A DNA stretch of 32,000 nucleotides, taken from the NCBI GenBank assembly GCA_942493095.1, contig OW818675.1, positions 1,500,001-1,532,000 on the forward strand, written 5' to 3'. A program made the translations under genes and the position numbers. The notes under the pieces were generated by a model. That model had not been told where the DNA came from and did not search any database. It saw only the letters and a list, made by a program, of their open reading frames with translations. The DNA is from Candidatus Electronema halotolerans (GTDB lineage: Bacteria > Desulfobacterota > Desulfobulbia > Desulfobulbales > Desulfobulbaceae). Of the stretch, positions 1-25,526 are shown one piece after another. The stretch's first letter is position 1. Every line of letters starts with the position of its first letter.

Positions 1-389
1 TGACGGTAGTCTGGCCAGAAGCCGGAATGCCGGATCCAGCGGCCCATGAAAAAGTTGCGCCGGGGAATATAGTAGGCATCCGCCGGGCGGGGCTGGGCAA
101 TGGCCGCCAAAATTTCATCCCGTGCTTCCGGGGTGCAGCGCTCGTCGGCATCCAAGGAGAAAATCCAGTCGTATGCGCAGGCGGCCATGGCCTGATTGCG
201 CAGGTCGCCAAAGCCTTTGAAGTCAAGCTGCACCACCCGTGCGCCCAGCGCGGCGGCCATTTCCGCTGTGCCGTCGGTGCTGAAGGAATCAGCTACAACA
301 ATTTCATCCGCCCAGAGCACAGAATTGACTGCGGCCTGAATCTTGTCCGCCTCGTTCCACGCTATAATGTATGCGGAAATTCTGCTCAT
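1..389 (-). CDS. Glycosyltransferase family 2, N-terminal part; the 3' end runs off the window
   Basis: My own reverse-complement translation from the ATG at 389..387 gives MSRISAYIIAWNEADKIQAAVNSVLWADEIVVADSFSTDGTAEMAAALGARVVQLDFKGFGDLRNQAMAACAYDWIFSLDADERCTPEARDEI... This shows the typical GT2 (GT-A fold) N-terminus, with DxS.DGT and the DAD(E) acidic motif. The gene is absent from the ORF track because no stop codon lies within the window. The plus-strand ORF 27..503 is its antisense shadow. Confidence 0.8.
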   Translation of the reverse strand, partial: MSRISAYIIAWNEADKIQAAVNSVLWADEIVVADSFSTDGTAEMAAALGARVVQLDFKGFGDLRNQAMAACAYDWIFSLDADERCTPEARDEILAAIAQPRPADAYYIPRRNFFMGRWIRHSGFWPDYR

Positions 390-2650
390 CGCAGCGGCCT
401 TGGCCCAGGAGGAGCTGGCCGTCTGGCCGCGCCGCCGCCTGCCAGCTGGATGACAATGTTGTCTGTCTTGCGCAGCCGCTTGGCCAGCGTCTTGAAAAGA
501 TGATTGGATATCTCTGGATATTTTTCCAGCAATTCCTTCAGCTTGTCGCCAGGGTACTTTTTCACCTTGCTCCGGCCCACTGAAATGACTGAGGCGTAGC
601 GGGGTTCTTGGAGCATGCAGGCCATTTCACCAAAATATTCGCCTGGCTCGGTAATTTCTGCGATTTTTTTGCCCTGCTTGAGCACTGCCACCTTACCGCG
701 CACCAATTTGTAGAAATTGCGGTCGTCCTGATTGCCCTCCTGAATGATGATATCACCATCCTCATATTCCTCCACCGGCGGACTGACGAGATAGGGCGGC
801 AGGGTGTCCTGATGGACAACTGTGCTGCCCTCCACCTCATCAAGACTGGTGACTCCCTGAACAGCCTTCAGAATTGCCGCTTGACGCAGGGTGTACATGC
901 CTGACTGCACGGCGACCTTGCGAAGCTGCTCCTCAGAAACCTGCGCTTGGATGGCTTGCGCAACCTCGGTGGTGACTTCCAGCAGCTCAAAAAAGCCGAC
1001 CCGGCCCTTGTAGCCACGCCCGCTGCAGACCGAACAGCCCTTGGGGCCGTAGAGCTGAAAGCCTTCCTTGTCAATTTGCTCCTCACTGAAACCGATCTCC
1101 AGCAGCCTTTTCCGTTCGACTGTAATCGGCTGCTTGCACTTGGCGCAGAGCCTGCGGCCCAGACGCTGGGCCAGAACCATAGTCAGCGAACCTGCCAGAA
1201 TATACGGAGGAATGCCGATGTCAACCATGCGGCTGACTGTGGCCACTGCGTCGTTGGTGTGCAGGGTGCTGAAGACCAGATGGCCGGTCATGGCCGCTTT
1301 CATGGCAATCTCAGCCGTGCTGATGTCGCGGATCTCGCCGACCATGATGATGTCCGGGTCCTGCCGGAGAAAGGCCTTCAGGGCGGCAGGAAAGGTCATG
1401 CCGACCTCAACGTTGACGTTGACCTGATTGATGCCCTTGAAGTTGAATTCAACCGGGTCCTCGGCAGTGAGGATTTTTATGTCCTCGCTGTTCAAGGAGT
1501 TGAGTGCCGAATACAAGGTGACTGTCTTGCCGGAGCCGGTCGGGCCGGTGACCAAAAGCAGCCCTTGAGGCCGTTCAAGACAGCGTCTGAGGGCGGCAAA
1601 GGTTTCTTCCTCAAAACCGAGCTTGGTCAGGTTGACGTTGAGCGAGCCTTTGTCCAAAATACGGAGGACAATGCCTTCGCCGTGCAGGAGCGGCAAGGTG
1701 GAGACACGAAAGTCAACCGCCTTGTTGCGGCCCATGCGGATGCTGATGCGGCCATCCTGCGGCACCCGCCGCTCAGTGATGTTCAGCCCGGCAAGAATCT
1801 TCATGCGGGCTGAGAGAGCGTTTTTGATGGTCAACGGCAGGTTCATGGCCTTGTACAAGGAACCGTCCTTGCGGTAGCGGACCTGCATGGTCTTTTCAAA
1901 CGGCTCAATATGAATATCGCTGACCCCTTCCTGCACGGCCTTGACCAAGATGCCGTTCACCAATTTGATGATCGGCGCGTCATTGGCTGAGAACTGACCA
2001 GTCTTGTCATCCTCTTCTCCGCTTGTGTCCTCGAACTCAAAGTCCTCGGCCGCGTCGTTCACCAGCGCGCCCCAGTCCTCAACCTGCTCAACCTGATCGA
2101 CCTGCTCATCCTCTTTCAGGCCAAAGAACGCTTTATACTCTTCCTCATCAATTTTGTAATAGGTGCGGTAGGCATCAACGATGTTTCGGGTTGTGGAAAC
2201 GCAGACATTCAATCCCATGTTGAGGGAGTTCTGTATCTCCTCAACCTCCATGGCATCGGTCGGCTCGGCCATGGTGATCTGGAGGGTGTCGCCCGCAACC
2301 CGGAGAGGAAAGGCCAAATACTTCTTGGCCATTTCGTAGGGCATCAGCTTGATGGCATCAGGACTCGGCGCTTCCTCGACGATATCGACCATGTTGTAGC
2401 CGTGCTGCCTGCTGAGGAAGTTGGCTATCGTATCTTCTTCAATAATGCCGCTTTCAAGCAGCAGCTTGCTCAACCGCTCGTTGGATTTTTTCTGGATGGC
2501 CTGAGCATTGGTGAACTCGGCAGAAGTGATATAGCCAGCCTTCTGAAGCAGCTCGCCAATTTTGAGTCTGCCTGCCCCGGACTGATCTTTGACAGTTCGT
2601 CTCAGCGCCGCCTTTTGCTCTGTTTTTTTTGCCGCAGATGATTTATCCAT
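386..2650 (-). CDS. Type II secretion / type IV pilus assembly ATPase (GspE/PilB/MshE family) with an N-terminal MshEN-like domain and an extra C-terminal cyclic-nucleotide-binding domain
   Basis: 754-aa ORF. It has a Walker A motif GPTGSGKT and conserved secretion-ATPase boxes (VGEIRD, TGHLVFSTLHTND). A tetracysteine zinc motif is present (CAKCKQP...CSVCSGRGYKGR). The N-terminus carries tandem T2SSE_N-type helices (LKIGELLQKAGYITSAEFTNAQAIQ and RLSKLLLESGIIEEDTIANFLSRQ). The C-terminal roughly 120 aa is a cNMP-binding fold (YEDGDIIIQEGNQDD...GEYFGEMACMLQEPRYASVIS). The stop TGA at 388..386 overlaps the ATG of the downstream GT2 gene (ATGA). Confidence 0.9.
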   Translation of the reverse strand: MDKSSAAKKTEQKAALRRTVKDQSGAGRLKIGELLQKAGYITSAEFTNAQAIQKKSNERLSKLLLESGIIEEDTIANFLSRQHGYNMVDIVEEAPSPDAIKLMPYEMAKKYLAFPLRVAGDTLQITMAEPTDAMEVEEIQNSLNMGLNVCVSTTRNIVDAYRTYYKIDEEEYKAFFGLKEDEQVDQVEQVEDWGALVNDAAEDFEFEDTSGEEDDKTGQFSANDAPIIKLVNGILVKAVQEGVSDIHIEPFEKTMQVRYRKDGSLYKAMNLPLTIKNALSARMKILAGLNITERRVPQDGRISIRMGRNKAVDFRVSTLPLLHGEGIVLRILDKGSLNVNLTKLGFEEETFAALRRCLERPQGLLLVTGPTGSGKTVTLYSALNSLNSEDIKILTAEDPVEFNFKGINQVNVNVEVGMTFPAALKAFLRQDPDIIMVGEIRDISTAEIAMKAAMTGHLVFSTLHTNDAVATVSRMVDIGIPPYILAGSLTMVLAQRLGRRLCAKCKQPITVERKRLLEIGFSEEQIDKEGFQLYGPKGCSVCSGRGYKGRVGFFELLEVTTEVAQAIQAQVSEEQLRKVAVQSGMYTLRQAAILKAVQGVTSLDEVEGSTVVHQDTLPPYLVSPPVEEYEDGDIIIQEGNQDDRNFYKLVRGKVAVLKQGKKIAEITEPGEYFGEMACMLQEPRYASVISVGRSKVKKYPGDKLKELLEKYPEISNHLFKTLAKRLRKTDNIVIQLAGGGAARRPAPPGPRPLR

Positions 2651-2831: not shown

Positions 2832-3764
2832 TTATTCAAAAAAGTTGCGGAATCGCTGTTTGCATTCCTCATGCAGGGGAATCATCACCTCGCGCATGGA
2901 CGGCTCCGCCGCCTTGGAGCAGCGCAGTTTGAAGATATGCCGCCATTCCTCCAAGTTGGCATAAACGATGATTTCGGTTTTGCAGGAATTGGGCAGCACG
3001 GTGCGGGCGGCCTGCGGCGTGGAGGTCTCCAACAGTTTGAAATATCGCTGTTCCTCATCAAGCATGGCCTGCTTCCAGACAGCATATTCCTCACTTTCTT
3101 GGGCAAAAAACAGCGGCTTGATAAACGTTATTTCGTTGCCGAACTTGTCTTCACTGTAGCGGCAATAGCGCTGTGATTCCTGAATAAATCCGCATGGGCG
3201 GTGCCTGACAATCTCATGCGTGACAGCGCGATTGACAATGAACTTCACCGCAAGATGCCGGTGCTTTGCCAATTTTTGCCCAGAGAATTGGTCGATTTCC
3301 GCCAGCGGCACCTTGCGCACAGTGATACCGGGAACAGCGGTCAGCCCTTTTTCCGCAAGAATATCCCGAAAAAAATAAGGATGCCGCTCACTGAGCAAAG
3401 CGCAGGCCGCTCTGATCACAGCGCAGTCTGGATGCACGAGAAGCATTTCCCGAAAAGCGCGGATGCTGCCAGTGATCAGCAGGCTGCGGCCTTCATGGCT
3501 GATGTGCAGGTATTTGGGCTGGCAAAGAAAAAACTCGGCAATGGCACTTTCATCAGTGCAGTTTATTTCCAGCGTGACCACACCCATTTCCAGCACTGAA
3601 TTGTGGCCATGCCCGGCCATTTTTTCGACAAAAGGAATGGCTGATTCTTGGGTTATCCGATCTTCGCTCTTGTAGCAGACACGCCCGCAGAACTCAATGC
3701 GGACAGCAAGGGGCTGCTGGTCGAGATGTTCAAGAATTTCAAAGGATGGGGAGATGACTTTCAT
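2832..3764 (-). CDS. thyX: FAD-dependent thymidylate synthase ThyX
   Basis: 310-aa ORF carrying the ThyX signature RHR-x7-S-x-R (RHRPCGFIQESQRY). The upstream conserved GHGHNSVLEMG block is also present, together with the C-terminal WRHIFKLRCSKAAEPSMREV block. Confidence 0.85.
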   Translation of the reverse strand: MKVISPSFEILEHLDQQPLAVRIEFCGRVCYKSEDRITQESAIPFVEKMAGHGHNSVLEMGVVTLEINCTDESAIAEFFLCQPKYLHISHEGRSLLITGSIRAFREMLLVHPDCAVIRAACALLSERHPYFFRDILAEKGLTAVPGITVRKVPLAEIDQFSGQKLAKHRHLAVKFIVNRAVTHEIVRHRPCGFIQESQRYCRYSEDKFGNEITFIKPLFFAQESEEYAVWKQAMLDEEQRYFKLLETSTPQAARTVLPNSCKTEIIVYANLEEWRHIFKLRCSKAAEPSMREVMIPLHEECKQRFRNFFE

Positions 3765-3776
3765 TGTTCAGATTCC

Positions 3777-3810
3777 AAATAAAAAATGCTGACAGGAAAA
3801 TCCTGTCAGC
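3777..3810 (-). terminator. Rho-independent terminator downstream of the 556-aa repeat-protein gene
   Basis: On the minus strand the stem is GCTGACAGG (3810..3802), the loop is 5 nt, and the return stem is CCTGTCAGC (3796..3788). It is followed directly by ATTTTTTATTT. The element lies between the stop at 3839 and the thyX ATG at 3764. Confidence 0.6.
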
Positions 3811-3838
3811 ATGGATACGCTGTTTAGCTGCGCAGAAC

Positions 3839-5509
3839 TCAGGGGTTTTCTGGTTGCGGTCTTGATTTCAGGAGCAACAGTTTATAGACTGGAATAAGGG
3901 AATTCGACGGTTCAAGAACTGCATCAACAGTGGTATCACCTGCTTGCACTTCAGTCGCCTGATCAAAATTAGGTTGATCATCGTACCATTCAGATGTTCC
4001 ATAGCCCGAACCATTTGCAGTCGTCTTTCTAAAGAATCTCACCTTGAACGTACCGCCAGCGGGCAGACCTGTAACTTCATATATGCCGTCTGTTCCAGTC
4101 GTTGCAGTTCCTCTCAGTAGAGATGAATCCGCACTGTCATAGACTGCAACCAAGCCGCCTTCCAAAGGCACAGGGTCGCTGTCGCCATCTTTGATTGTTA
4201 CTGTGCCGGAAATACTGACACCAAGATCGAGTTCAGCGTCTTTTCCTGTCAGAGCATCACCTAATGATGTAATATCTACAGCGTCAGCACTGCTCTCTTT
4301 ATACCATTCACTGCTGTAACCGGTTCCGTCAGCTTGAAAATAGAGTGTGTAACTGTCTCGCTGCAAGCCAACAACAGTATATGCTCCATCTGTTCCTGTT
4401 GCAGGAGAAGTTGCGGCCAGACTGCCGCTGCTGTCATAAGCTTTGACAATTACGCCTGCAATTCCTTCTCCTGCGCTGTCTGTCACTGTGCCAGAGATAC
4501 TTGCGCCGTTGAAAACAGCATCAACATCTGTCTGACCAATAGAAACTGAATCGGCAGTGGCAGCATCAGATTTGTCATTATACCATTTATTGACTCCTGC
4601 TCCGGCATTAGTGGCTGCTTTTTTCTCAAAGAATTGCACTTTGTAACTTCCTGATGCAGAAAGGCCGCCAACAGTGTAGGAGCCATCCGTTCCTGTTGCT
4701 GTATATCCTTTCAGAGTATTATCGGCGGTATCATATACATTGATCCATGCTCCAGAAATACCGGCTCCAGTTTCGCTGATAGTTACTTTGCCAGAAATAC
4801 TACCACCAGTAGAGAGTATAGCATCAATACCGACTTTTGTCTCTCCTGCTGTAACAGTTAAAACTGTAGCATCACCTTCATCAGCTACGTCATCATACCA
4901 TTCAGTACCATAATTAGTCCCGAAAGCTCTAAAACGCACTTTATAGCTTCCAGCCCTTAAACCGCTTATGGAATAGGCTCCAGAACTGTTTGTAGTGTCT
5001 GATAGAAAATTATTTTCGTCATTCAAGTCAATAACTTGCACGGTAACGCCTTCGATTCCTTTGCCGCTGCTCTGATCTGTTACTGTGCCTTTAATGACAG
5101 CACCTGAAACAAGCACGGTTTCTCCTAAATCCTGCGTAGCCTGCCCTGATGTCAAAGAGACAATATCTGCTTCAGTAAAAGTTGCTCTGTTGTTATACCA
5201 TTGATCAATACAATCAAGTTCAGAAGCAGCACAAGCAAAGATTATTCTGTAATTCCCGAACTGCAATCCTGATATTGTATAGGAACCATCAGCACCTGTT
5301 TTTTCTGCCTTGAAAACAGAGTTCTGGTCAGATAGAGATACTCCAACCAGAAAATTTGGAACAGGATCATTGCCATCAAGCACTTTGCCAGTTATAGAAC
5401 CAGTTGTCTGAGCTTCCGCTGCTGGTGGCAGGCAGCACAGTCCAGAGAAGGAAAGCAGGGGCAGCAGAATGGTCAGAAACCGCAGCCAACGGTTATTATT
5501 CATGCTCAT
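3839..5509 (-). CDS. Secreted protein with five tandem carboxypeptidase-regulatory-like / Cna-B-like beta-sandwich repeats
   Basis: The start is trimmed from the track ORF (5698) to the ATG at 5509, which is preceded by GGAGATATGCC (an RBS). The N-terminus MSMNNNRWLRFLTILLPLLSFSGLCCLPPAAEA-QTT is a Sec signal peptide with an AxA site. Five repeats follow the pattern ISG(K/T)VT..G.GI.G..V.VYD....T...DG.Y.V.GL..GSYKV.F....EWY(D/N)D. Confidence 0.8.
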   Translation of the reverse strand: MSMNNNRWLRFLTILLPLLSFSGLCCLPPAAEAQTTGSITGKVLDGNDPVPNFLVGVSLSDQNSVFKAEKTGADGSYTISGLQFGNYRIIFACAASELDCIDQWYNNRATFTEADIVSLTSGQATQDLGETVLVSGAVIKGTVTDQSSGKGIEGVTVQVIDLNDENNFLSDTTNSSGAYSISGLRAGSYKVRFRAFGTNYGTEWYDDVADEGDATVLTVTAGETKVGIDAILSTGGSISGKVTISETGAGISGAWINVYDTADNTLKGYTATGTDGSYTVGGLSASGSYKVQFFEKKAATNAGAGVNKWYNDKSDAATADSVSIGQTDVDAVFNGASISGTVTDSAGEGIAGVIVKAYDSSGSLAATSPATGTDGAYTVVGLQRDSYTLYFQADGTGYSSEWYKESSADAVDITSLGDALTGKDAELDLGVSISGTVTIKDGDSDPVPLEGGLVAVYDSADSSLLRGTATTGTDGIYEVTGLPAGGTFKVRFFRKTTANGSGYGTSEWYDDQPNFDQATEVQAGDTTVDAVLEPSNSLIPVYKLLLLKSRPQPENP

Positions 5510-5551
5510 GGCATATCTCCTTGGACAGAAGTTTGTATAAATTCTGCCCAA

Positions 5552-5581
5552 ATTATAAAATGAAATCCTAACAGGTTGCAA
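5552..5581 (-). promoter_or_regulatory. Candidate sigma70-type promoter for the 556-aa repeat-protein gene
   Basis: On the minus strand the -35 element is TTGCAA (5581..5576). An 18-nt spacer separates it from a consensus -10 TATAAT (5557..5552). The promoter lies about 45 nt upstream of the ATG at 5509. Confidence 0.4.
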
Positions 5582-5586
5582 GAGAT

Positions 5587-6087
5587 TTATTCTACTGGCG
5601 GAACAATTATTTTTCCACAGCCACACAGCCACAGATGCAGTCTGCGCAGGGCATGAAAAATCAAGGTATGGCTGACAATCAAGCTGGCCATAAACCACTG
5701 GAACGGTGTGTTTAAACTGATTGGCGGCCCTGTCTCAGGAATGATTCGCCGCACCTGGCCAAGCACGTTGTCAGCAGGCGAAAAGCCGTCAAAACCGGCG
5801 CAGGCATCACCTTTAGTCAACAGATGCAGCCTTCCGTTTTGCAAACGCCGCCAGATCAGGCGGTGGACAAGCGGATTTCCCGTTCGATCATAAAGGAAAA
5901 AAATCTCACCGAGCTGTAGTCTGTTGCCAAGCAGCGGGGCAATCTCAATGACCTCTCCTCCCTTGAGCAGTGGTCGCATGGAATTGCCGGACACCCGGAT
6001 GCGGACAGCAATACCTTGCCGCAACAGCGATTGCACCAAGACTAAGGAACCCGGCTCGCGGATGCCAATGACAGAACGGTTATTCAT
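5587..6087 (-). CDS. S26B (SipW / archaeal-ER type) signal-peptidase-like serine peptidase
   Basis: 166 aa counted from the ATG at 6087; the track ORF uses a TTG at 6093. It has box B VSGNSMRPLLKGGEVIEI, box D LVHRLI and box E TKGDACAGFD...NVLGQV. These parallel the SGSMEP / THRV / TKGDANN boxes of SipW-type Ser-His peptidases. A hydrophobic C-terminal segment FQWFMASLIVSHTLIF is present. The gene starts 6 to 12 nt after the stop of the upstream gene. Confidence 0.7.
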   Translation of the reverse strand: MNNRSVIGIREPGSLVLVQSLLRQGIAVRIRVSGNSMRPLLKGGEVIEIAPLLGNRLQLGEIFFLYDRTGNPLVHRLIWRRLQNGRLHLLTKGDACAGFDGFSPADNVLGQVRRIIPETGPPISLNTPFQWFMASLIVSHTLIFHALRRLHLWLCGCGKIIVPPVE

Positions 6088-6099
6088 CGGCAAGTCTGC

Positions 6100-6984
6100 T
6101 CAAGGCAGTAAAGCGGCCAAATCGGCCACAGCCTGCACAGCGGTTTGATCCGGGCGGAAGGCCAGCTCAAAGGCAGGAATATCAAGGAGAAGCGACTCGC
6201 AGACGGCAAGTCCTTTGTCTGTCCATTCCTGACTGTACCAAGGAATGGAGACCGTCTCCAGCAGACGGCGGAGAGCGGCGGAGGGTGCCAGTTCAGAAAT
6301 TTTTGTCTGCGAGGCTTGGCTGAGAAAGACCAAAGCCGAAAGCGGCGCGGACTCGTTGCGGGCGATCACACCAGTTCCTTTCCACGGAGTGCCCCAGAGC
6401 TGCCAGCCGTCATTCATTCGGCGCATGATGATCCGCTCTTCGCTGTAGAGCTGATTTTCTGGAAAAGGTAGCAGCAAATGACTGAGAGTGGATTTGCCCG
6501 TGCCGGAAACAGCCGGAAAAACCATGCCCTTGCCGTGAATGGAGCCGCCTGCGGCATGGATGATCAAGCCGTGATGATTTATGAAGGTGTGCTGAAGGAA
6601 AAAGCGGTTAAATGCAAGACGATAACAATCATTTTTTTTCTCGTCATGCGGAGAAAGAAAAAATTCAAAAATAGAAAATTCAGAATCAACAGCGAGATGC
6701 CATAAAATATCTGCTTTTCCATCCTTCAAATACTGCAATTCAAGTCCGCCGTTCGCTGCGGCGTAAAGATTTATCTGATGTTGTGAATATATTTTATTTT
6801 TGGCAGCTTTTTCAGCATCATACTGTCTGGATAACTTGAAGTCAATCTGAATTTTCGCCTGAATATACTTCCCGCTATGGTTTTGGTCCAAGAAAGAATC
6901 GTATTCTTTTCCTTCTTCTTTCAGATTGCAATAAGAACCAGCAGAAATCTGAACAGGCAAGCCGCCAAGACTATATGAGAGCAT
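6100..6984 (-). CDS. HPr kinase/phosphorylase-like P-loop protein (putative peptide Ser/Thr kinase)
   Basis: 294-aa ORF. The segment HAAGGSIHGKGMVFPAVSGTGKSTLSHLL matches the HprK C-terminal catalytic domain pattern (HG..v...g.G.l..G.SG.GKS). The size and context resemble the HprK-like kinases encoded in some lasso-peptide and PqqD-associated clusters. Confidence 0.75.
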   Translation of the reverse strand: MLSYSLGGLPVQISAGSYCNLKEEGKEYDSFLDQNHSGKYIQAKIQIDFKLSRQYDAEKAAKNKIYSQHQINLYAAANGGLELQYLKDGKADILWHLAVDSEFSIFEFFLSPHDEKKNDCYRLAFNRFFLQHTFINHHGLIIHAAGGSIHGKGMVFPAVSGTGKSTLSHLLLPFPENQLYSEERIIMRRMNDGWQLWGTPWKGTGVIARNESAPLSALVFLSQASQTKISELAPSAALRRLLETVSIPWYSQEWTDKGLAVCESLLLDIPAFELAFRPDQTAVQAVADLAALLP

Positions 6985-7002
6985 GAAAATACTCTCTATA
7001 AC

Positions 7003-7179
7003 TTATCCAGATTGACCACTAACTTCACCACATCCACCTGCTCCTATAGCCCATCTGCAAACCTCTAACACTTGGTCAGCAAACAACTCCACCTTGCCCA
7101 AGAGCGGTTTTTCATACGGCATTTTTTCCTGCCTGTCTGTTTGGCGACACTGTTCCAACATTTCGTATTTTTTCATCAT
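7003..7179 (-). CDS. Small ORF A2, 58 aa: candidate RiPP precursor peptide (not in the ORF track)
   Basis: Hand translation gives MMKKYEMLEQCRQTDRQEKMPYEKPLLGKVELFADQVLEVCRWAIGAGGCGEVSGQSG, with stop TAA at 7005..7003. An RBS GGAGAG lies 5 nt upstream, and the ORF starts 11 nt after the rSAM stop. It shares the block YEKPxLGKVxLFADxVLxxC with ORF A1, and many of the shared residues use different synonymous codons. Confidence 0.7.
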   Translation of the reverse strand: MMKKYEMLEQCRQTDRQEKMPYEKPLLGKVELFADQVLEVCRWAIGAGGCGEVSGQSG

Positions 7180-7190
7180 TCACTCTCCAA

Positions 7191-8339
7191 TCAAAAAGAT
7201 GGTATTTGGGCCAGCTCAGTTCGACGGCTGACAGCATACTGACAATAAAAATCAGGCACCTGCTGCGCATCATCTGTTTCCAAAGCAAAATTGCTTGGGC
7301 ATCCTGTGCAGACATTTCTGTCGTCGCAGTTATTGCAAGGAAAACCGTCCCGCGCCTCCTGCTCTGGAAAAGTTCCGTTGATGCTCTTCCATGCCGCCTG
7401 AAATGTCTGACTGGCATCCTGCAAATCAATTGCAGAACGGAGCGTGATCAGACAGGGCTGCATCACTCCATAGGGCGTGATATGACAGGATGACCTGCCT
7501 GCGCCGCAACGGTAGAGTTTATTTGATGGCTCTGCTGAAGCCGCTTCAGCAATCTGCTCCTGCAACTTTTCCCGCACCTTGGCAATGCTCAGATCAGCAT
7601 CTGCCGCCTGCTCAGGGGCCAGTCGGAAACGGAGTGTGTCCTGCAAGCTGTCCCCAACATTGCTGCGTCCGCCGTTGTCGCCGTTGGGCAGAGCTGGGAT
7701 AATCGAACAGTCATGCCGGAACTGCACTCCCATCTCCTCCGCCTTATGCCAAAGCTGCGGCAGTTCATCCCGGTTCAAGGTCAGTGCCATTGTTTTCAGG
7801 CGGAGCCGCACCTTGGCCTGCCGGAGCTTCTCAACCCCTCTCATGCAAGCGGCATAAGAACCGGGAGCCTGCGTCACCGCCTCAAAGGTTTCCTGACTTG
7901 CACCGTACAACGTCACTTCGACGGCTCGTGGCGGATAGGTGACAAAAGTGCTGACAATTTCATCTGTGATCAGCGAGCCATTGCAGAAGACCGTCACCAA
8001 AAGACCTCTGCGCACCGCATGACGGTAGATGTCGAGAAAATCAGGTCGGAGCATTGGGTCTCCGCCAGTCAGGGTCAAAAACAAAGTTCCTGCCGCCATC
8101 ATCTCATCAAGCAGCCTGATGACCGCTGCTGCATCCAATTCCTGCGGCTGATGACCACGTATGCTTTTTTGATCGCCGAGATAGCAGTGAACACAACGAA
8201 AATTGCATCGTCGGGTCAGCTCCAAAGAAACAGCAAATGATACATGAGCTTGCCCTGCTTTGACAAGATAACTGGATATATCATTGCTTTCCGCTGCAAG
8301 ACAATCCGTTTCTTTTTGAACTACCCGATGGCCTTTCAA
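7191..8339 (-). CDS. Radical SAM / SPASM-domain peptide-modifying enzyme
   Basis: 382-aa ORF with the Cx3Cx2C motif CNFRCVHCY about 45 aa from the N-terminus. A GGDP SAM-binding motif is present (LTLTGGDPMLRPDF). The C-terminal Cys-rich SPASM region reads YRCGAGRSSCHITPYGVMQPC...FPCNNCDDRNVCTGCPSN...YCQ. The start is a TTG at 8339, preceded by AAGGAAG. No in-frame ATG occurs before the SAM cluster motif. Confidence 0.9.
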   Translation of the reverse strand: MKGHRVVQKETDCLAAESNDISSYLVKAGQAHVSFAVSLELTRRCNFRCVHCYLGDQKSIRGHQPQELDAAAVIRLLDEMMAAGTLFLTLTGGDPMLRPDFLDIYRHAVRRGLLVTVFCNGSLITDEIVSTFVTYPPRAVEVTLYGASQETFEAVTQAPGSYAACMRGVEKLRQAKVRLRLKTMALTLNRDELPQLWHKAEEMGVQFRHDCSIIPALPNGDNGGRSNVGDSLQDTLRFRLAPEQAADADLSIAKVREKLQEQIAEAASAEPSNKLYRCGAGRSSCHITPYGVMQPCLITLRSAIDLQDASQTFQAAWKSINGTFPEQEARDGFPCNNCDDRNVCTGCPSNFALETDDAQQVPDFYCQYAVSRRTELAQIPSF

Positions 8340-8364
8340 AAAACTTCCTTATGCTATTAAGTTA

Positions 8365-8535
8365 TTAAGGATCAGAATTGACAGCAACTAAGTTGCGAAT
8401 TTCACATGTGTTATCATTATCATAACACATCGACAGCACTCGATCTGCAAACAAACTTACTTTACCTAACTGCGGCTTTTCATACACCTGCTTGGCAGCT
8501 TTCTGCGTCTGTTTTTCCTGAATATCCTGCTGCAT
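8365..8535 (-). CDS. Small ORF A1, 56 aa: candidate RiPP precursor peptide (not in the ORF track)
   Basis: Hand translation gives MQQDIQEKQTQKAAKQVYEKPQLGKVSLFADRVLSMCYDNDNTCEIRNLVAVNSDP, with stop TAA at 8367..8365. An RBS AAGGGGGGA lies upstream. The ORF starts 21 nt after the PqqD stop and ends 25 nt before the rSAM start. It is paralogous to A2 in the leader-like block and divergent in the C-terminal, core-like part. Confidence 0.7.
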   Translation of the reverse strand: MQQDIQEKQTQKAAKQVYEKPQLGKVSLFADRVLSMCYDNDNTCEIRNLVAVNSDP

Positions 8536-8556
8536 GGCCCGCGTCCCCCCTTTGTT

Positions 8557-8856
8557 TTAATTGACTGCCGCCACTATCAGCCCTGCTTCCGCCAGTCCAT
8601 CAGCAATCTCCAGCATGTCCGCCTCAATCACTGCTGCCGGGGCATCGTACTGCTGCTCCAGCATGGAGCCGATTGCCGCCAGTGAGCGGCTGCCGTCCAA
8701 GGCCTGCCAGATGAAGGCCCCGGTCTCATTGAGCGTGTAGAGGTTATCCATTGAGGCCAGTTCGCCGGAAATCGGCACCAGCAGGGTTTCATCCATCACC
8801 TTGCGGGTGACTATGTTCTCGGCCTGCCGGAAGACATCAGACAACTGCGCACTCAT
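8557..8856 (-). CDS. PqqD-family peptide chaperone (RiPP recognition element)
   Basis: 99 aa counted from the ATG at 8856, which has a GAGG RBS 9 nt upstream. The track ORF begins at a TTG at 8922 that overlaps the giant gene stop. The sequence MSAQLSDVFRQAENIVTRKVMDETLLVPISGELASMDNLYTLNETGAFIWQALDGSRSLAAIGSMLEQQYDAPAAVIEADMLEIADGLAEAGLI has the typical PqqD length and pattern (..y.LN.tga.iW..ldG..s...i...l...y.......e.D...f...L...gli). Confidence 0.85.
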   Translation of the reverse strand: MSAQLSDVFRQAENIVTRKVMDETLLVPISGELASMDNLYTLNETGAFIWQALDGSRSLAAIGSMLEQQYDAPAAVIEADMLEIADGLAEAGLIVAAVN

Positions 8857-8884
8857 GTTCTCGCACCTCATGCTCTTTGAATCG

Positions 8885-8908
8885 CCCCGGACACGTTCGC
8901 ATCCGGGG
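8885..8908 (-). other. GC-rich stem-loop between the giant gene stop and the PqqD start
   Basis: CCCCGGA (8885..8891) pairs with TCCGGGG (8902..8908) around a 10-nt loop. No U-tract follows on the minus strand, so it is not a canonical intrinsic terminator. It may be an mRNA processing or stability element, or a partial attenuator. Confidence 0.3.
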
Positions 8909-8918
8909 TGAGAATCGC

Positions 8919-11900
8919 TCAATGTTCTGCCGGAACTGGCACCAAGGCTGCCGGATCGCCGAGCAGGTTGTAGATGTCCAGCGTATATGGCATTGCCCCT
9001 TGCTCTGCATACTGCTGCTTGGCCCGCAGCACGGCATCGCCGATCCTGCCAACTGCCGGATCGCTCAGGCTACTATAGAACCCGTCTGCCATTATATCCG
9101 CAAGATAGTTGTATGACAAGCCTGTTGCGCCAAAAAATCCAACCGCAGCTCCATTTTCTTTCAGCACCGCGCTTTCACCGATGCTGTTCATGGGAGGATA
9201 GCCAAAGCTGGCGGACGAACAGCTCATGCTGACCATCAGCATGGGCTGGCTGAGATCGTTCATTGCTGCAATTTCATCAGCAGTCAGCAGCTTGCCGGTC
9301 CGTCCATATTTGATCAAAGAGCTGTGGCCAATGTAGTGCAGGATGCCGCCGCCCTGCTGGAATGCGTTGACCACTTTGCTGTTTGTTCCGCTCTCGCCAA
9401 GCGTGTCAACGGCAATCTGCTCCACTGTGAGGCCGTTTGGCACCAGCGCAGCCACCTTGTCAGCACTGGCTTGGAAATTGCCTGCGGCTGGGTCGGATTT
9501 ATCGACAACTATCGACAATGCGCCGCCCTGCCCTGCTGTCTGCTCATAAGCAATCAGCTTGTCAGTATAGGCAGAAAACTCCTCATTGTCGATCACTGGA
9601 ATTCGGCCAATGGCAAATTCCGGCACTTTATCATCACCGACCACATCCGCCAGCGCATTGTCGCTGGGGAAATACCCCTCCGGCGTGGCGGTCAGCACAG
9701 TTGGCACCAGCGGCCAGCCTGCGCCGAGATAGTTTTTATAGTCATAGGAGCCATCGCCAACCAGAACCACATAGTGCGGCACCTTGGCCCAGTTTTCATG
9801 AACGTAGGCGAGGAAGTCGCGCACTGCCTCCGGCGCGGCCAGACTGTCGCTGAACTCATCCTGCACATCGTCAATATCAACGACCATTGTCTCCAGTCCC
9901 TGTGTCTCGCGGTATTCTGCCAATCGCCGGGCCTCGTCCATCAAATGCAGCGGGCTTATGAGCAGATAATCAGCTCTGTTGCGCGCATCATGCAGGCTTG
10001 ACGGCGTGTCAGCGGTCAGTTCGCCGGACACAGTTGCCGTGATGTTTTCGGTGAGGAAATAGCGGTGCTCGGCTTGGACTGGCACTGTGACCGTGTATGC
10101 GCCCTCCCCTTCCTCTTCGACAGTCGGATAAATGCGCACCGGTTCATTCGGGTCAGTGATGTCCAAAGCCAAGACGGTGCGGGAGCTGAAGCCTGCCACA
10201 GTCATGCTGCTGTCCTCGCTGCTGGAGAAGGTCAGTTCGCCGTTCACGGCCTGAGCCAGCCGCTGATATTCGAGATCAATCGAGTCAAGATAAATCAGCG
10301 AATAGTTCACGCCGCTGTTCAGGGCAGAGACAATTTTCAGCTCATTGCCGCTGTCTTTAAGCAAATCTGCAGAGACTTCCTCGCTGATCTGCCAGTCACC
10401 GGTTTCACTGCTTTCTGCTGTGCCAAGCTCGGTGCCATTCAAAGAAAGGGAGACTTTGTATGGCGCAGTCTGACTGCTGGAGCTGCTGGAGATATTGACC
10501 AGATTGACTGTGACACGGGCCGTGCCTTCACCAGTCAGATCAGGTGCGGACACTGGATGAGCAACAGAAGCATTACCCTTCTTGGATGCCATCAGATATT
10601 CCCATGCCCAGAAATCATGCACCGGCTTGTTGATGTACAGATGGAACGGCATGTGATTTTCTTCCGTTCTCACCTGCGCGGTGAAGGATTGCAAATTATC
10701 CGCCTTCTTCTCAGCCCGTTTGTGGCTGTTCTTTATCTCAGCTCCTTTTGTCTTGCCCAGATCAAGGAGATAGATGTTCTGGCCAATGTCGTTCCGCTCC
10801 GGCGCATACCCATAGAACCAGAGGGCCGAGCCAACTGCTGAGGAGAGCACTGAGACAGGCTCGCCTGCCAAGGTCAGAGACAGCTTGCCGTTCTTCAGAT
10901 GCCGTGTGACCTCAGCTTTGCGCAGACCGGAAGCTGCTGCCAGCTCGTCGGCAGTCAGATAGACCAGCCCATCCTTGCTGACCGGCACTTTGACCGTGTC
11001 GCCGGTTTTACGTTTTTTCTCCGCTGCCAAACTGCGGGCCGCTTGTTTATGGGCGGCAAAGCGGCTGATCTGTTTGGCGGAGAAATCAGCCTGCGCCAAG
11101 GTGAAGCCAGCCGGGCCGTCAGCGAACATCTGCCGGTTGATTGGTAGAGGCTGTTTCGGCGTGACCGTGTAAGGCCCGTTGACCATGCCGTCACCGTTGA
11201 CTGTCACTTCCTGCACACGATAAACGTGCTGCTGATTCGGCTTTGCTGACGGATCAACAAAGCGGTAGCTTCCGCCCTGCGGCGGCAGGAGCATTCCCGG
11301 CAGCAGCTCAGAAACCGTCTCAAACGCGCCGGTCTGCTCGTTCAGCCGTTCGAGCAGAAAGCCGATGGTGCCAACTTCGCTGTCGGTTTTCCACTCCAGC
11401 ACGGTCTGGTTGTCATCGTTGATGTATGCCTTGAACGAGCTGATCAGGGCGTAGGTTGGAACTAGTGGAGCCAAACCGAAATTTTTTCCAGCGATACTGG
11501 AGCCACTGGAAACTTCGGCTGAAAGAACCGGAATATCAGGTGTGGTCAGAGACAAGCCGTCTAAGGCGCTACCGCTGATTTCAACCAGATACTTGCCGTC
11601 AGGCAGATTGGTGAAAAAATAGTTGCTGTCAGAGGCACTGCTGGTTGTTGCAGTCTGCAAAAACTGATCGCTGCTGTCGAGCTTGCCGTCACCGTTCTGA
11701 TCAAGATAGAGAGTGACAGTCACACCTGCTATTGGACTTTCGTCAGCATCTATATCCTTACCTTTATCATCATCGCTCCATACCAAGCCGCTGATCAAAC
11801 CGCTGCCAGTCTTAGTTTTGAAACCGAAGTCAATATTGCTGACTGAGGTGGCTCCCAGCGTGACTGCTGTCGGGCTTGGTGTAGTTGTAGCTGTGAAACT

Positions 11901-14900
11901 ATTCAGCTCACCGTTGCTGTTAGGCAGTTTGACGACGTACTTGCCCGCAGACAGACCGCTGAAGTTGTAGAGACCGTCCGAGTCGGTGGTTTCTGTTCTG
12001 ATCGGTGACGAACCGCTGTCAATGTTGCCGTCTCCGTCGCTGTCTAAATACAGTTCCACTTCCACGCCGCTCATGCCCGGCTCGCCATCATCTTGAATGC
12101 CGTCGTCGTTCAAATCCAGCCAGACCCGGTCGCCGATGCTCAGGCTTTTGGGTGGTTGATAGCCGAAGTCAGCATTGTCAACATCACCGGTCAAATTTAT
12201 GGCAAAGGTGTTGCTGCCTGAAGTTGCAGTTCTGCCGTCCAAAATGCCGCTGCGGTCTGTCACCCGCACTTCGTAGTTTGCGCCGCCTTGGGCCACGTTG
12301 AATAAATATGCGCCATTCGTGCCGGTGGTAGTGGTGGCGACAGGAATGTCGTTCCGATACAGATCAACTGTCACTCCGGCAATGCCAGCCTCGCCTGCGT
12401 TCTGCGTCTTGTCACCATTACTGTCTTCCCAGATCAGATCGCCAATGGTGTAGCCGGTGCCACTGGTCAGCTTGAGACCGAAATCGGCAGAGAGAACATC
12501 AATTCCGTCAGGAACGGTTACGTCTTTGCTTGTTGGACCGCCATTGCTGACCTCCATGTCGGTCGGCAGTGTAACTGCAACAGTATAATCACCTGCATCA
12601 ACCGGTGCCAGATAATGACCTGCGGCATCAGTGGTAACTGTTATCGGAGTACCGCCGCCTGATGGCGTGATGGTTACTGTCACGCCATCAAGACCCGCTT
12701 CACCTGGATCCTGCACACCATTGTTATTGGCATCAAACCAGACCGTGTCGCCGATCAGCGGCTTTTCGCCAACGTAACCGAAATCAAGGTTGTCAATGAC
12801 CTGACCGGCTGTGACAGTGATCATGCCGCCGCCTGCGCTGGCAGTTTTATCAGAGTCAAGAGTATCATCAACACCACTTTTGTCAGCTTCAGCAGCAGTC
12901 AAATTGGTTGGCGTGACCACATCCACCCAATAGTTGCCCGGAGGCAACCCGGCAAAGGAGTAATTGCCGTTGCCGTCGGTGACAACAGTTGCTACCAGCG
13001 TATCTCCAGTGCTGCTGAAACCGCTGACTCCATCATCACGGTAGATATTAACCGTCACGCCGCTCAGGCCGGGTTCGTTCAGGCTTTGAATGCCGTCCCG
13101 ATTCACATCTAACCAGACGCGGTCGCCGATGGTTGCGCCGCCGACGAAGCCGAAGTCGCGGGTTGTGTCAGTTTCACCTTTGACCAGACCAGTGACAATC
13201 TCACCTGCGGGATCATCAGCCTTGTTGTCACCAGCTTCTGTGGCTGGGTCAGCACCATCATTTGCTCCGTCTGTCGCTGGTGTATGCGTCGAAACCATGC
13301 CATCTATGCCGGGAACGGTGATGTTGAAGGTCGGCCCGTTGGTGCCGTCAGCACTGCTGTAATCTTCATCCAGCATGACGTTGTCGAAGCGGTAATTGCC
13401 GTCCGCATCTGTCATGGTGGTCATGGTCACTGTTCCGCTGCTGTTCGGATATGTGATGGTCAGCACCACCGGATAATGCGCCAGCTTCGTTTCGCCGCTG
13501 TCTAACGTGCCGTTGTTGTTGACATCGCTCCAGAGGGTGCCGCCAAAGGTCGTGCTGTCCTTGTAGTAGCCGAAATCAGCCGTGTTATTATTTGGCTGGC
13601 TGCCGCCGACAGTGACGCTGTAGCCGCCGCTTATTTGGCTGTTGTTGTCATCGCCCGGATTGGAGCCAACAGAATGCCACCAGCCGGTGAGCTGGCCAGC
13701 TTCATCTGTCACTTCAACGGTGTAGGTGCCGTCCGGCAGATTTTTGAATATATAGCTACCGACCGGTTCAGCAGCACCATCACCGTCAAGATCGGCGGGG
13801 GTACTGATAGTTGTTGTCGAAGCAATAATATTGCCGGTTGTTTTGTCACGCAGAACAACTGTGCTCCCGGCGATGCCTTTTCCGGTTTCATTCAGCGTTC
13901 CGTCCGCATTGACATCATTCCAAATGGTGCCGGAAACGGTGTTAGCACCTGTGTATCCGAAGTTCTGGGTCAGATTTGGCTGCACTGCGCCGCTGCCATC
14001 AGCAGTCAGCGTGACAACGGATTTGCTGTCGCCGTCGCCGTTCGGATCAACAGTATTGGTCAGACCGTCGCCGCTATTGGGCAGCGAGGTTGTCTTAACC
14101 CGCACTTCATAATTGCCCGCAGGCAGATTGCCGAACTGATACTGGCCGTTCTCGTCGGTCTGGGTGACAGCTACCAGTGCGCCATCTTGATACAGACTGA
14201 CGGCAACACCTTCCAAACCTTCGCCCGGATTGTAATCGCCGCTGTTATCACGATCCAAGAAGATCGTGCTGCCGATCATGCCTTTGCCAGCCGTTTGTCC
14301 TTTCGGCGTGTAGCCAAAGTTCACGTTGGTCACTGCGCCCGATACATTTACAGCAGTTTCGTTATTCAACGTGCTGTCAGGATCGCCGCTCTGCACAACC
14401 TCGCCAAGGACGTTCTGCGTGTCGGTGACAACGACTTTGTAACCGCTGCCGGTTGGCACGCCGCTGAAGTTATATTTGCCATCTTTGTCTGTGACAGTAG
14501 TAGCGATGATCTTGCCGGAAGCATCTTTCAACACCACGGTCACGCCGGGGATGCCAGTGTCGCCGCCGTTCAGGACGTTGTCGCCAGGGTCGCCGCAGAC
14601 AGTGTTTCCGCCCGCCAAGGCGCAGGCATCGGCATTGACATCACGATACACCGTGCCGGTGACGCTGCCGCTGCTGGCTGGTTTGTAGCCGAAATCGCCT
14701 TGCAGATAGACATCGCCCGGTGCAAGAATGATGGGCGAGGTTGTCTTGTTGTCGCCTGAAATAGCGGTAACACCCGGTTGATCAGGATCGCCGGTCTGGG
14801 TGGTTTCTGCCGGAGGAGTGACCTCAACGACATAGCTGCCTGCGCTGACGTTTGTGAAGATGTAATTGCCTGCGCTGTCAGTGGTGGTCGTTGTTGGGGT

Positions 14901-21713: not shown

Positions 21714-21824
21714 GATCATGCCTCCATATCGTGACAGAAACATCCGGCGGACATTTTTGTGCCGCTGCTATTCAGTACAATTTTTTTAACGCGCATTTGG
21801 TCAAAAAGTAAATAAATTATATAA

Positions 21825-21834
21825 GTTCTCACTA
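21825..21834. repeat. Target-site duplication, left copy (GTTCTCACTA)
   Basis: An identical 10-mer directly abuts both IS ends, at 21825..21834 and 23099..23108. Confidence 0.85.
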
Positions 21835-24659: not shown

Positions 24660-25523
24660 TTACTCATTTGCAGGGCAACGTATCGTCTCTGCCAGCCGCT
24701 GCCCGGATGCGATCTCCGCCTTGTCCCAGACCACGCAGCGGCGCAGCTCCGCGCCTGCCCCAATCTTCGCGCCCGGCCCGATCACGCCCCAGTCCAATAA
24801 TCTCACCCCGCTGCCAATCTCCGCGCTTTCGCTGATCAGCCAAGCAGGTGATTTGTTTTCCAGCAGGCGGCGGTGCAGGTCAAGATAGTCTGCTGGTGTG
24901 CCAATGTCCTGCCAGAAGCAGCCGTCTGTGCGGATGAAGCCGATCTGCCCGGCCTGCGCCAGCCGCTCATAGAGGTCAATGATATGAAAAAATCCTTGAG
25001 CCGGAATCTGTTCCAGTACCTCTGGGTTGAGAACATGAATGCCGGTGAAGGCAAGGACCTGCTCTCCCGCTCCTGCCCGGCCAAAGCCGCAGACCCGGCT
25101 CTCCCGCACCCGCACCATGTTGAAGCGGGGACAGTCATGCAGGGCCATTGTCACGGGCAGGCCGCTTTTCTTATGCGCCGCCAGCAGGCTGCGCAGATCA
25201 ATATCGTGATACAAATCGCCGTTCATGACCAGCACAGGTTCATCCGCAAAGTTCGGCAATGCCTTGCGCAAGCCGCCGCCGGTGCCCAGCACCTCCTGCT
25301 CGTGCTGAAGAATCACTTCCGGCCTGTCAGCAACCGCAGCGGCAAGCTGATCAGCAAGATAATGGCAGTTGACCACCACCCGTTCGCAGCCAGCCTGGGT
25401 CAGTTTGTCTAAAAGAAGATGCAGCAGAGGCGTGTTGCAGATGGGGAAAAGCGGCTTGGGCCGGACAAGGCTGTATGGACGGAGCCGGGTGCCGAACCCG
25501 GCAGCCAAAAGCATGGCCTGCAT
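24660..25523 (-). CDS. Sugar-phosphate nucleotidyltransferase (NTP_transferase family)
   Basis: 287-aa ORF whose N-terminus MQAMLLAAGFGTRLRPYSLVRPKPLFPI carries the G-x-G-T-R-L signature of NDP-sugar pyrophosphorylases. The C-terminus looks like a short left-handed beta-helix (GSGVRLLDWGVIGPGAKIGAGAEL). Confidence 0.85.
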   Translation of the reverse strand: MQAMLLAAGFGTRLRPYSLVRPKPLFPICNTPLLHLLLDKLTQAGCERVVVNCHYLADQLAAAVADRPEVILQHEQEVLGTGGGLRKALPNFADEPVLVMNGDLYHDIDLRSLLAAHKKSGLPVTMALHDCPRFNMVRVRESRVCGFGRAGAGEQVLAFTGIHVLNPEVLEQIPAQGFFHIIDLYERLAQAGQIGFIRTDGCFWQDIGTPADYLDLHRRLLENKSPAWLISESAEIGSGVRLLDWGVIGPGAKIGAGAELRRCVVWDKAEIASGQRLAETIRCPANE

Positions 25524-25526
25524 GTT

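Follow-up and report, generated by a model that had tools for sequence, protein, structure and literature searches.

What do the closely packed minus-strand genes in this stretch of the Candidatus Electronema halotolerans genome do together, and where does their unit begin and end? The stretch, hereafter the window, comprises 32,000 nucleotides of a cable bacterium, and an initial annotation had set apart its interval 5587-8856 as a candidate pathway for a peptide that is ribosomally made and posttranslationally modified (RiPP). Six minus-strand open reading frames (ORFs) were found at the coordinates claimed for them, separated as claimed by 21, 25, 11, 18, and 6 nucleotides (the last gap becoming 12 with the ATG at 6087), and the motifs CNFRCVHC and SGTGKST are present. 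The interval itself was too narrow, as the conserved unit includes a giant gene at 8919..21743 that had been overlooked. We find that the genes probably form a widespread, uncharacterized RiPP-type cassette, transcribed together with the gene of a giant surface protein whose C terminus is a PorU-like peptidase C25 module and linked to that protein in function. All cassette genes lie on the minus strand, and they are listed here in the order of transcription.

8919..21743, minus strand: giant secreted protein of 4274 amino acids, the conserved first gene of the cassette
8919..11465, minus strand: PorU-like C-terminal module of the giant protein (amino acids 3427-4274), beta-sandwich domains and then the C25 catalytic domain
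8557..8856, minus strand: discrete RiPP recognition element (RRE) of the PqqD family; the ORF reaches 8922, with an alternative start at 8871
8365..8535, minus strand: putative precursor peptide A1, 56 amino acids, an Electronema-specific extra copy paralogous to A2
7191..8339, minus strand: radical S-adenosylmethionine (rSAM)/SPASM enzyme, 382 amino acids, TTG start behind AAGGAAG
7003..7179, minus strand: putative precursor peptide A2, 58 amino acids, in the ancestral position directly 3′ of the rSAM gene
6100..6984, minus strand: P-loop kinase of the HprK/ScmC family, 294 amino acids, its beta domain at the N terminus and its kinase domain at the C terminus
5587..6093, minus strand: S26B-type peptidase, putative leader peptidase, with Ser38/His77/Asp96

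Purine-rich ribosome-binding sites precede the A1, A2, and rSAM genes. One genome per species was scanned with an alignment of rSAM homologues, which yielded 485 relatives, and 80 loci (L001-L080) were fetched, all ORFs of which were compared with the window proteins. The fetched loci span at least 12 phyla, and their hosts include cable bacteria and other Desulfobacterota, Gammaproteobacteria, Nitrospirota, Planctomycetota, Acidobacteriota, Chloroflexota, Gemmatimonadota, Verrucomicrobiota, Kiritimatiellia, Lentisphaerae, Rokubacteria, Bdellovibrionales, and one Acidimicrobiaceae metagenome-assembled genome. The rSAM gene is present in 79 of the loci, the PqqD gene in 76, the kinase gene in 75, and the peptidase gene in 56, and their order is nearly constant: PqqD, rSAM, a small ORF of about 58 amino acids, kinase, peptidase. 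Exceptions are the peptidase gene, which is convergent in loci of the Planctomycetota-Verrucomicrobiota-Chlamydiota (PVC) group, and the PqqD gene, which follows the precursor in some Acidobacteriota. The parts list that the initial annotation had drawn up for a RiPP pathway, namely, precursor, recognition element, rSAM/SPASM enzyme, HprK-like kinase, and S26B-type peptidase, is conserved together. We conclude that the arrangement is far beyond chance, given the recurrence of its gene order in 80 loci.

Homologues of the small ORF were found by profile search directly after the rSAM gene in 78 of the 80 loci. A1 (leader ...VYEKPQLGKVSLFADRVLSM, core CYDNDNTCEIRNLVAVNSDP) and A2 (leader ...PYEKPLLGKVELFADQVLEV, core CRWAIGAGGCGEVSGQSG) are 59% identical over 32 leader residues (E = 1e-11). 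Both had been proposed as precursors from the window, and their homologues are indeed conserved beside the enzymes, but the two positions are not equivalent. An ORF in the gap between the PqqD and rSAM genes, where A1 lies, occurs only in Electronema (L001-L003 and the window), so A1 is a lineage-specific duplicate and A2 occupies the ancestral position. The motif YxxP is present in all 86 precursors, with Tyr at its first position in 85. Outside the cable bacteria the consensus is [KR]-x-P-Y-E-K-P-x-[LIV]-[RK]-x-[IV]-[ED]-L-x-x-[ED]-E-[VT]-L-[ASG]-x-G-C-K, after which come 18 to 29 core residues; the core has three cysteines (41 sequences) or two (23). The distance from the Tyr to the first Cys is exactly 20 residues in 62 of 64 noncable precursors and 19 in cable bacteria, and 59 of 65 noncable precursors end in Gly-Ser. 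Cable-bacteria precursors have the leader ...YEKPxLxxVxLFADQVL..., two cysteines, and, in 14 of 21 cases, a terminal Ser; hypervariable cores stand behind the conserved leaders, and there are multiple copies. We note that two Desulfobulbaceae/Electronema loci contain partial tandem duplications, one with a second precursor and a second kinase (L005:9131-12305) and the other with a second C25 gene of 1127 amino acids and a second precursor (L006:9788-13566). Variable cores behind a conserved leader, in several copies, are a usual mark of RiPP precursors. We conclude that the small peptides are very likely the substrates of the cassette enzymes.

The rSAM enzyme matches Pfam Radical_SAM at 73.5 bits, and none of 72 sequences departs from the CX3CX2C cysteines of its CNFRCVHC motif (C45/C49/C52). 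The window enzyme has the complete set of seven SPASM cysteines (C278, C296, C335, C338, C344, C347, and C366); among the 72 sequences C278, C296, C344, and C347 are invariant, while C335 is found in 62 and C338 and C366 in 53 each. Homologues carry the Joint Genome Institute name "radical SAM protein with 4Fe4S-binding SPASM domain," and the nearest solved structure by sequence is SkfB (E = 7e-10). The enzyme fell into no non-RiPP family. The full ORF of 382 amino acids starts with TTG behind a strong Shine-Dalgarno sequence, and its full length is conserved in homologues. We note that the public annotation of the gene (P0008; GCAAIG_06720, "hypothetical protein") is 287 amino acids long, lacks the CX3CX2C motif, and appears to be truncated.

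Thioether cross-links are the commonest chemistry for cysteine-containing cores served by rSAM/SPASM enzymes. Against NCBIfam, the best score of the window enzyme was to AhbD (118 bits against a cutoff of 500), and scores to other families were 103 against 265 for MftC, 75.6 against 625 for StsB, 58.2 against 340 for PapB, 54.7 against 381 for PqqE, and 48.4 against 850 for AlbA. Three-Cys precursors were found only with rSAM enzymes having the full set of seven SPASM cysteines (36 of 36 loci), and enzymes without Cys338 and Cys366 were always paired with two-Cys precursors (19 of 19 loci, PVC group), a pairing confounded by shared phylogeny. The pairing may link an auxiliary cluster to a third cross-link, or it may reflect clade history alone. 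We tentatively propose that the rSAM enzyme forms Cys-derived thioether cross-links.

The PqqD-like protein matches Pfam PqqD at 63.7 bits, and its nearest entries in the PDB are PqqD proteins. The kinase retains H143, the P-loop S160-G-x-G-K-S-T166, R184, and G198-T-P-W, all invariant or nearly so in 73 sequences. Moreover, Glu182/183 lie 18 to 19 residues after the P-loop Lys, where HprK/P has its metal-binding Asp pair, and the equivalent D158/D159 are essential in the lasso peptide kinase PsmK (PMC6993621). NCBIfam models HprK_rel_B, HprK_rel_A, and ScmC matched the kinase at E values of 1e-7 to 5e-5, all below cutoff, and the precomputed Pfam annotation, shared by the kinase (recorded as the identical protein P0121) and all 118 homologues, was PF27840, "ScmC." A sequence search of the PDB with the kinase returned no match. 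An AlphaFold2 model of the kinase (predicted local distance difference test [pLDDT], 89.8) had phosphoenolpyruvate carboxykinase (PEPCK) and HprK/P as its top structural matches, and the PEPCK and HprK/P folds are structurally related. The family is large: a profile search of 1.84 billion cluster representatives recovered 5278 full-length relatives at E ≤ 1e-30, and some members sit in other PqqD contexts without an rSAM gene. A Bacteroidales locus encodes, in order, a 744-amino-acid protein, PqqD, ScmC, and a VanZ-like protein, and a further locus encodes PqqD, an S24/S26-like peptidase, an ABC exporter, and ScmC, an arrangement reminiscent of the linear polyphosphorylated peptide (LPP) clusters described below (jointly L081:5472-9640 and L083:4482-9185). 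We consider it probable that the cassette kinase phosphorylates Ser.

Ser38, His77, and Asp96 of the peptidase are invariant in all 53 sequences of its family, the Ser motif in the window being SGNSM, and an alignment of the enzyme with human SEC11A runs through the SGSM, HR, and TKGD motifs. It scores 41.5 bits (E = 1e-10) against a cutoff of 51.85 for TIGR02228, the archaeal-type signal peptidase I, and its Nitrospira homologue exceeds that cutoff at 55.6 bits. No transmembrane segment was found in the N-terminal regions of 50 of the 53 family members or in the C-terminal regions of 49. As there is no hydrophobic stretch long enough for a membrane anchor, the peptidase should be soluble and cytoplasmic, unlike SipW and Sec11. 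The S26B homology noted in the initial annotation was borne out, but the likeness to SipW does not extend to a membrane anchor: the protein resembles a soluble leader peptidase rather than a SipW-like membrane signal peptidase. Judged by its sequence, it is homologous to, yet is not, a classical signal peptidase, and a role as leader peptidase is rather likely.

When the larger ORFs of the 80 loci were clustered into families, that of the giant protein was the third most widespread, behind the rSAM enzyme and the kinase. The giant protein has an N-terminal Sec signal peptide, approximately 16 SdrD_B repeats (771 bits), CarboxypepD_reg repeats, and a Peptidase_C25 domain at amino acids 3926-4266 (Pfam, 238 bits). 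The C25 gene lies directly upstream of the PqqD gene and on the same strand in 58 of the 65 loci whose upstream flank reaches 2.5 kb or more; tblastn added L013 and L028, and the gene is downstream instead in L014, L016, and L068. Homology between loci extends over the last ~840 residues of the giant protein (amino acids 3427-4265). Within this module all 57 sequences retain the catalytic residues His4140 and Cys4175, and the catalytic Cys is the only invariant Cys. The protein stops 9 residues after the C25 domain, an end point shared by 28 of the 57 homologues, and thus lacks the C-terminal domain of the type IX secretion system (T9SS).

In type IX secretion, the C25-family enzyme PorU serves as C-terminal signal peptidase and as sortase. 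The PDB sequence nearest to the conserved module is PorU (6za2, E = 1e-10), compared with 7e-5 for gingipain R. Consistent with the sequence match, a Foldseek search with an AlphaFold2 model of the module (pLDDT 76.5, from a shallow alignment, 18 homologues having been found by profile search) matched latent PorU (6za2) at E = 1.8e-26 over 611 columns and Kgp at 2e-10 over 390 columns. Pairwise identities of the rSAM enzyme covaried with those of the C25 module (Spearman, 0.60) and with those of the kinase (Spearman, 0.75), two values that lie close together. The covariation with the C25 module, confounded by shared phylogeny, is what inheritance as a single unit would give. What the analysis directly establishes is the gene content, the conservation, the catalytic residues, the motif geometry, and the linkage to the C25 gene. 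We conclude that some functional link between the cassette and the C25 protein is likely and that the near-obligate association of such a cassette with a PorU-like giant protein appears to be new.

The closest experimentally studied system is the LPP pathway of Bacillota, which comprises LppA, LppB (the RRE), LppK, and LppS (Popov et al., Nat Commun 2026; PMC13381572). In that pathway the discrete RRE binds the leader motif YxxPxVLxHQxIxFET↓xxS (arrow, cleavage), LppS cleaves with a S29/H68/D93 triad only when LppB presents the leader, the HprK-like LppK polyphosphorylates core Ser3, and the clusters are colocated with capsular polysaccharide loci (PMC13381572). Both systems have a discrete PqqD-type RRE, an HprK-like kinase, and a homologue of archaeal-type signal peptidases with Ser, His, and Asp; both leaders carry YxxPx[L/V], with Glu at +14 and Thr or Val at +15 from the Tyr; the Ser and His of the peptidase are spaced 39 residues apart in LppS as in the window enzyme; and both are associated with cell-surface or polysaccharide loci. 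The systems also differ. An rSAM gene is found in 79 of 80 loci here, whereas "radical SAM" appears nowhere in the LPP paper or its supplements. An NTP-transferase is an LPP core gene and so is an MsbA-like exporter, but neither is among the conserved families here, and the window's sole NTP_transferase (24660..25523) is found some 3 kb upstream of the giant gene, on the far side of a transposase. LPP precursors are 35 to 200 amino acids long, with long cores that have no fixed Cys or C-terminal Gly-Ser; LPP is reported only from Bacillota, in contrast to the Gram-negative phyla that hold the present cassette; and LPP has no C25 or PorU-like partner. The initial annotation had stated that the cluster corresponds to no known, experimentally characterized RiPP class. 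No class with a described product does match, but the trio of RRE, HprK-like kinase, and SipW-like peptidase already constitutes the LPP core (PMC13381572). We conclude that the differences from LPP are decisive for classification.

Other known systems share fewer parts. In the lasso peptides paeninodin and pseudomycoidin an HprK-like kinase phosphorylates the C-terminal Ser (PMC6993621), and, as is proposed here, a discrete RRE binds a [Y/W]xxP leader and an HprK-like kinase acts on a peptide. The cassette has an rSAM enzyme in place of the lasso cyclase and B2 peptidase; as had been claimed, neither an Asn-synthetase-like cyclase nor a transglutaminase-like B2 peptidase was found, either in window ORFs of at least 150 amino acids or among the conserved neighbors. 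Sactipeptide and ranthipeptide systems (SkfB, AlbA, StsB, and PapB) resemble the cassette in the SPASM-type set of cysteines, the short Cys-containing core, and PqqD-type recognition, but here the RRE is a separate protein rather than an enzyme-fused domain, and a kinase and an S26 peptidase are present. The multidomain C25 architecture with a His/Cys dyad is shared with PorU, but the module here is the end of a 4274-amino-acid repeat protein without a T9SS C-terminal domain, and its hosts are Desulfobacterota, Nitrospirota, Planctomycetota, Acidobacteriota, and others, among them phyla without a known T9SS.

SynChlorMet and GeoRSP, which had been named as the nearest systems, are computationally defined NCBIfam/TIGRFAM cassettes. 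Both have a PqqD homologue and rSAM/SPASM proteins, and SynChlorMet also has an HprK-like ScmC; the PF27840 annotation of the kinase agrees with that comparison. The equivalog models are nevertheless far from being reached. Scores against cutoffs for the SynChlorMet models (TIGR04248 to TIGR04251) were 22.8 against 125 for ScmC, 20.8 against 100 for ScmD, 73.3 against 400 for ScmE, and 73.4 against 400 for ScmF, and those for GeoRSP were 61.1 against 400 for the rSAM protein (TIGR04303) and 20.1 against 100 for PqqD (TIGR04302). Moreover, the cassette has one rSAM gene where SynChlorMet has two, and its S26 peptidase and C25 giant protein come in addition. Canonical members from Nitrospira and Planctomycetota gave the same picture of NCBIfam scores below cutoff, with the exception of the Nitrospira peptidase and TIGR02228. 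On these scores the cassette is best regarded as analogous to SynChlorMet and GeoRSP rather than as a member of either.

An NCBIfam and Pfam scan of all components gave no curated family that fits beyond the generic Radical_SAM, PqqD, and C25 and, for one homologue, TIGR02228. Literature searches found nothing on HPr kinase together with radical SAM and PqqD in RiPPs, and nothing relevant linking signal peptidase, rSAM, RRE, and kinase in one RiPP, linking Peptidase C25 with radical SAM and PqqD, or concerning SynChlorMet or GeoRSP. Nothing relevant to radical SAM and PqqD was found in the cable-bacteria literature, in which PMC11976967 and PMC11247825 mention no cassette genes, and an rSAM compendium (PMC10288494) mentions no link to a kinase or peptidase. 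We conclude that the kinds of component are known and that no described product, curated family, or literature was found for their combination.

How might the parts work together? By homology we infer how binding, modification, phosphorylation, and leader removal would proceed. The substrates would be A2 and its Electronema duplicate A1. The PqqD-type protein would bind the leader, K-x-P-Y-E-K-P-x-L...L-F-A-D-Q-V-L, through YxxPxL and would present the peptide to three cytoplasmic enzymes. The rSAM/SPASM enzyme would modify the Cys-containing core, thioether cross-links from Cys being the likeliest outcome. The kinase would then have a Ser as its target, namely, that of the C-terminal Gly-Ser in most members and a Ser near the C terminus in A1 and A2; since lasso HprK-like kinases act on a C-terminal Ser, the near-invariant Gly-Ser is the likeliest target here. 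The soluble Ser/His/Asp peptidase would cut off the leader, in dependence on the recognition protein as LppS does. The leader register matches that of LPP, in that F-E-T at +13 to +15 corresponds to [ED]-E-[VT], and the cut is therefore predicted after +15 from the Tyr (E-[V/T]↓L). An alternative site is [A/S/G]-x-G↓C: the sequence [ASG]-x-G↓C-K is found in 54 of 64 sequences and obeys the classical −3/−1 small-residue rule.

From gene linkage alone, we infer that the product would act jointly with the PorU-like giant protein at the cell surface, as its substrate, acceptor, or regulator, and would not be a free-standing antibiotic. A narrower version, in which the cassette is a surface-sorting or attachment system and the cross-linked phosphopeptide is a dedicated substrate or acceptor of a PorU-like transpeptidase on a giant adhesin, is possible but unlikely.

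Several observations weigh against a RiPP pathway tied to the giant protein. About 13 loci, most of them from Acidobacteriota, show no peptidase gene in the flank that was available, with the precursor motif unchanged, and no other conserved peptidase was found in the loci without an S26 gene. No exporter was found in the cassette, and none is conserved in the neighborhoods of the 80 loci, which leaves no evident route by which a cytoplasmic product would reach a surface protein exported by Sec. Five loci have sufficient flank but no C25 gene. Neither A1 (...NSDP) nor A2 (...GQSG) has a terminal Ser. The Pfam SPASM model did not match the window rSAM enzyme at E ≤ 0.01, and as no rSAM family of known chemistry comes near its cutoff, thioether formation is only a prior. 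Finally, the shared phylogeny noted above confounds both the pairing of SPASM with precursor cysteines and the covariation of the rSAM enzyme with the C25 module.

One alternative is that the product is a free, secreted RiPP, such as an antimicrobial or a signal, with an unlinked exporter, and that the C25 protein is an incidental neighbor or a passenger of a shared promoter. Hypervariable cores, conserved leaders, and multiple copies in cable bacteria are typical of bioactive RiPPs, and the five loci without the C25 gene, as well as PqqD and ScmC-type kinase pairs that occur elsewhere without one, also speak for this alternative. The C25 module is nevertheless adjacent and on the same strand in about 90% of the loci with sufficient flank, across at least 12 phyla, and covaries with the rSAM enzyme; surface proteins of the choice-of-anchor J, CarboxypepD_reg, and Wza/Wzc types lie in or near the cassette; and just as there is no conserved exporter, no immunity gene is conserved among the neighbor families. 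We regard a free secreted product as quite unlikely.

A second alternative is that the cassette makes a peptide-derived intracellular redox cofactor, as the pathways for pyrroloquinoline quinone (PQQ) and mycofactocin do. A PqqD protein, an rSAM/SPASM enzyme, and a small peptide without an exporter follow the logic of those pathways, MftC (103 bits) is among the best full-length NCBIfam matches, and the invariant Gly-Ser C terminus outside cable bacteria recalls that MftC and PqqE also act on defined residues. The scores are far under the cutoffs, however (MftC, 103 against 265; PqqE, 55 against 381), and no partner dehydrogenase is conserved in the neighborhoods. Moreover, the hypervariable core of cable bacteria is incompatible with a fixed cofactor, and the logic of a kinase and a leader peptidase fits the LPP and lasso systems instead. 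We conclude that a cofactor pathway is very unlikely.

Most improbable of the three is that the cassette serves maturation of the giant protein itself, with an rSAM enzyme like the anaerobic sulfatase-maturating enzymes (anSME), a dedicated S26 signal peptidase in the style of SipW and TasA, and small ORFs that are not substrates: tight linkage to a giant secreted protein and the classical dedication of SipW-type peptidases to matrix proteins (background in PMC13381572) speak for it, but the peptidase, having no membrane anchor, cannot be exposed to the periplasm, the signal peptide of the giant protein is of the ordinary Sec type, the catalytic Cys is the only invariant Cys of the conserved module, and the small ORFs, present in 78 of 80 loci, carry an RRE-type YxxP, while a discrete PqqD implies a peptide substrate. 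An anSME-like protein maturase was rejected on the same evidence, that is, the soluble peptidase, the RRE-type leader, and the conserved small ORF. A link to the nickel cofactor or conductive fibers of cable bacteria was also rejected as the principal explanation because the cassette is widespread outside cable bacteria.

Where, then, does the proposed RiPP-type operon with the giant gene at its head begin and end? Two features lie downstream of the peptidase gene.

3839..5509, minus strand: secreted CarboxypepD_reg/SdrD_B repeat protein (Pfam CarboxypepD_reg, 145 bits) with a readable signal peptide
3786..3812, minus strand: intrinsic-terminator-like hairpin with a 12-bp stem and a T run

Homologues of the 3839..5509 gene adjoin the peptidase gene on its downstream side in 10 cable-bacteria loci. 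In the scanned part of the window (3700..9100), the hairpin at 3812..3786, after the 3839..5509 gene, is the sole strong terminator downstream of the cassette, and no comparable terminator was found in the portion of 21743 to 3839 that this part covers. We conclude that the 3839..5509 gene is probably the last gene of the operon and is specific to cable bacteria. At the other side, a DDE transposase gene (21832..23010, minus strand) lies directly upstream of the giant gene; it likely marks the upstream edge of the operon and is possibly a point of rearrangement or mobility.

Lineage-specific genes accompany the cassette elsewhere. Electrothrix loci (L004, L007-L012, and L075) have an extra ORF of about 210 amino acids between the kinase and peptidase genes (e.g., L007:10532-11173) that matches the choice-of-anchor J domain NF038128 at 36 to 44 bits against a cutoff of 30; this ORF is not in Electronema or the window. 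FecR-like, porin, Wza-like, and Wzc-like genes near the cassette are clade specific and were seen only in PVC-group loci. In one of these (L062:6696-12801), genes for a FecR-domain protein, a BBP2-type beta-barrel porin, a Wza-like protein, and a Wzc-like tyrosine-kinase/chain-length protein lie downstream of the cassette. The polysaccharide-export neighbors in PVC loci recall that LPP and paeninodin clusters, too, are found together with capsule loci in Bacilli.

Farther out in the window, the NTP_transferase gene (24660..25523) and a family 4 glycosyltransferase (GT4) gene together occupy 24660..26642 on the minus strand, about 3 to 5 kb upstream of the giant gene. The transposase gene and an opposite-strand CCG/4Fe-4S gene lie between this pair and the giant gene, and the fetched loci end short of there. 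Given the NTP-transferase of LPP clusters, a relationship of this gene to the cassette is conceivable. The gene at 386..2650 (minus strand) encodes an ATPase of the type II secretion system/type IV pilus kind (T2SSE, 444 bits), with an MshEN domain and a C-terminal cyclic-nucleotide-binding domain, and appears unrelated to the cassette. Two overlapping ORFs on opposite strands, 29566..31260 (plus, 564 amino acids) and 29899..31215 (minus, 438 amino acids), lie in the part of the window richest in G+C, and the plus-strand ORF had no Pfam match.

If the RiPP-type reading is true, the cassette would represent a large RiPP-type family without a described product, with 485 genome matches in at least 12 phyla. 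The logic that combines an RRE with an HprK-like kinase and a SipW-like leader peptidase, reported for Bacillota in 2026, would be extended to Gram-negative phyla and to radical SAM chemistry. Linkage to a PorU-like giant protein, for which no precedent was found, raises the testable question whether modified peptides may be partners of sortase-like C25 enzymes instead of free antibiotics or cofactors. If the peptide does serve in surface attachment, it would be an anchor or linker for self-ligation or protein ligation by the C25 enzyme, or a gate of the peptidase, and would be a RiPP serving a sortase-like enzyme outside type IX secretion. Nitrospira, Competibacter, and Planctomycetota are more tractable hosts than uncultured cable bacteria. 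For the cable bacteria themselves, the cassette points to an operon that is conserved, associated with the envelope, and hypervariable in its peptide cores, and, should the attachment role hold, a contribution to the envelope of the filament would be possible.

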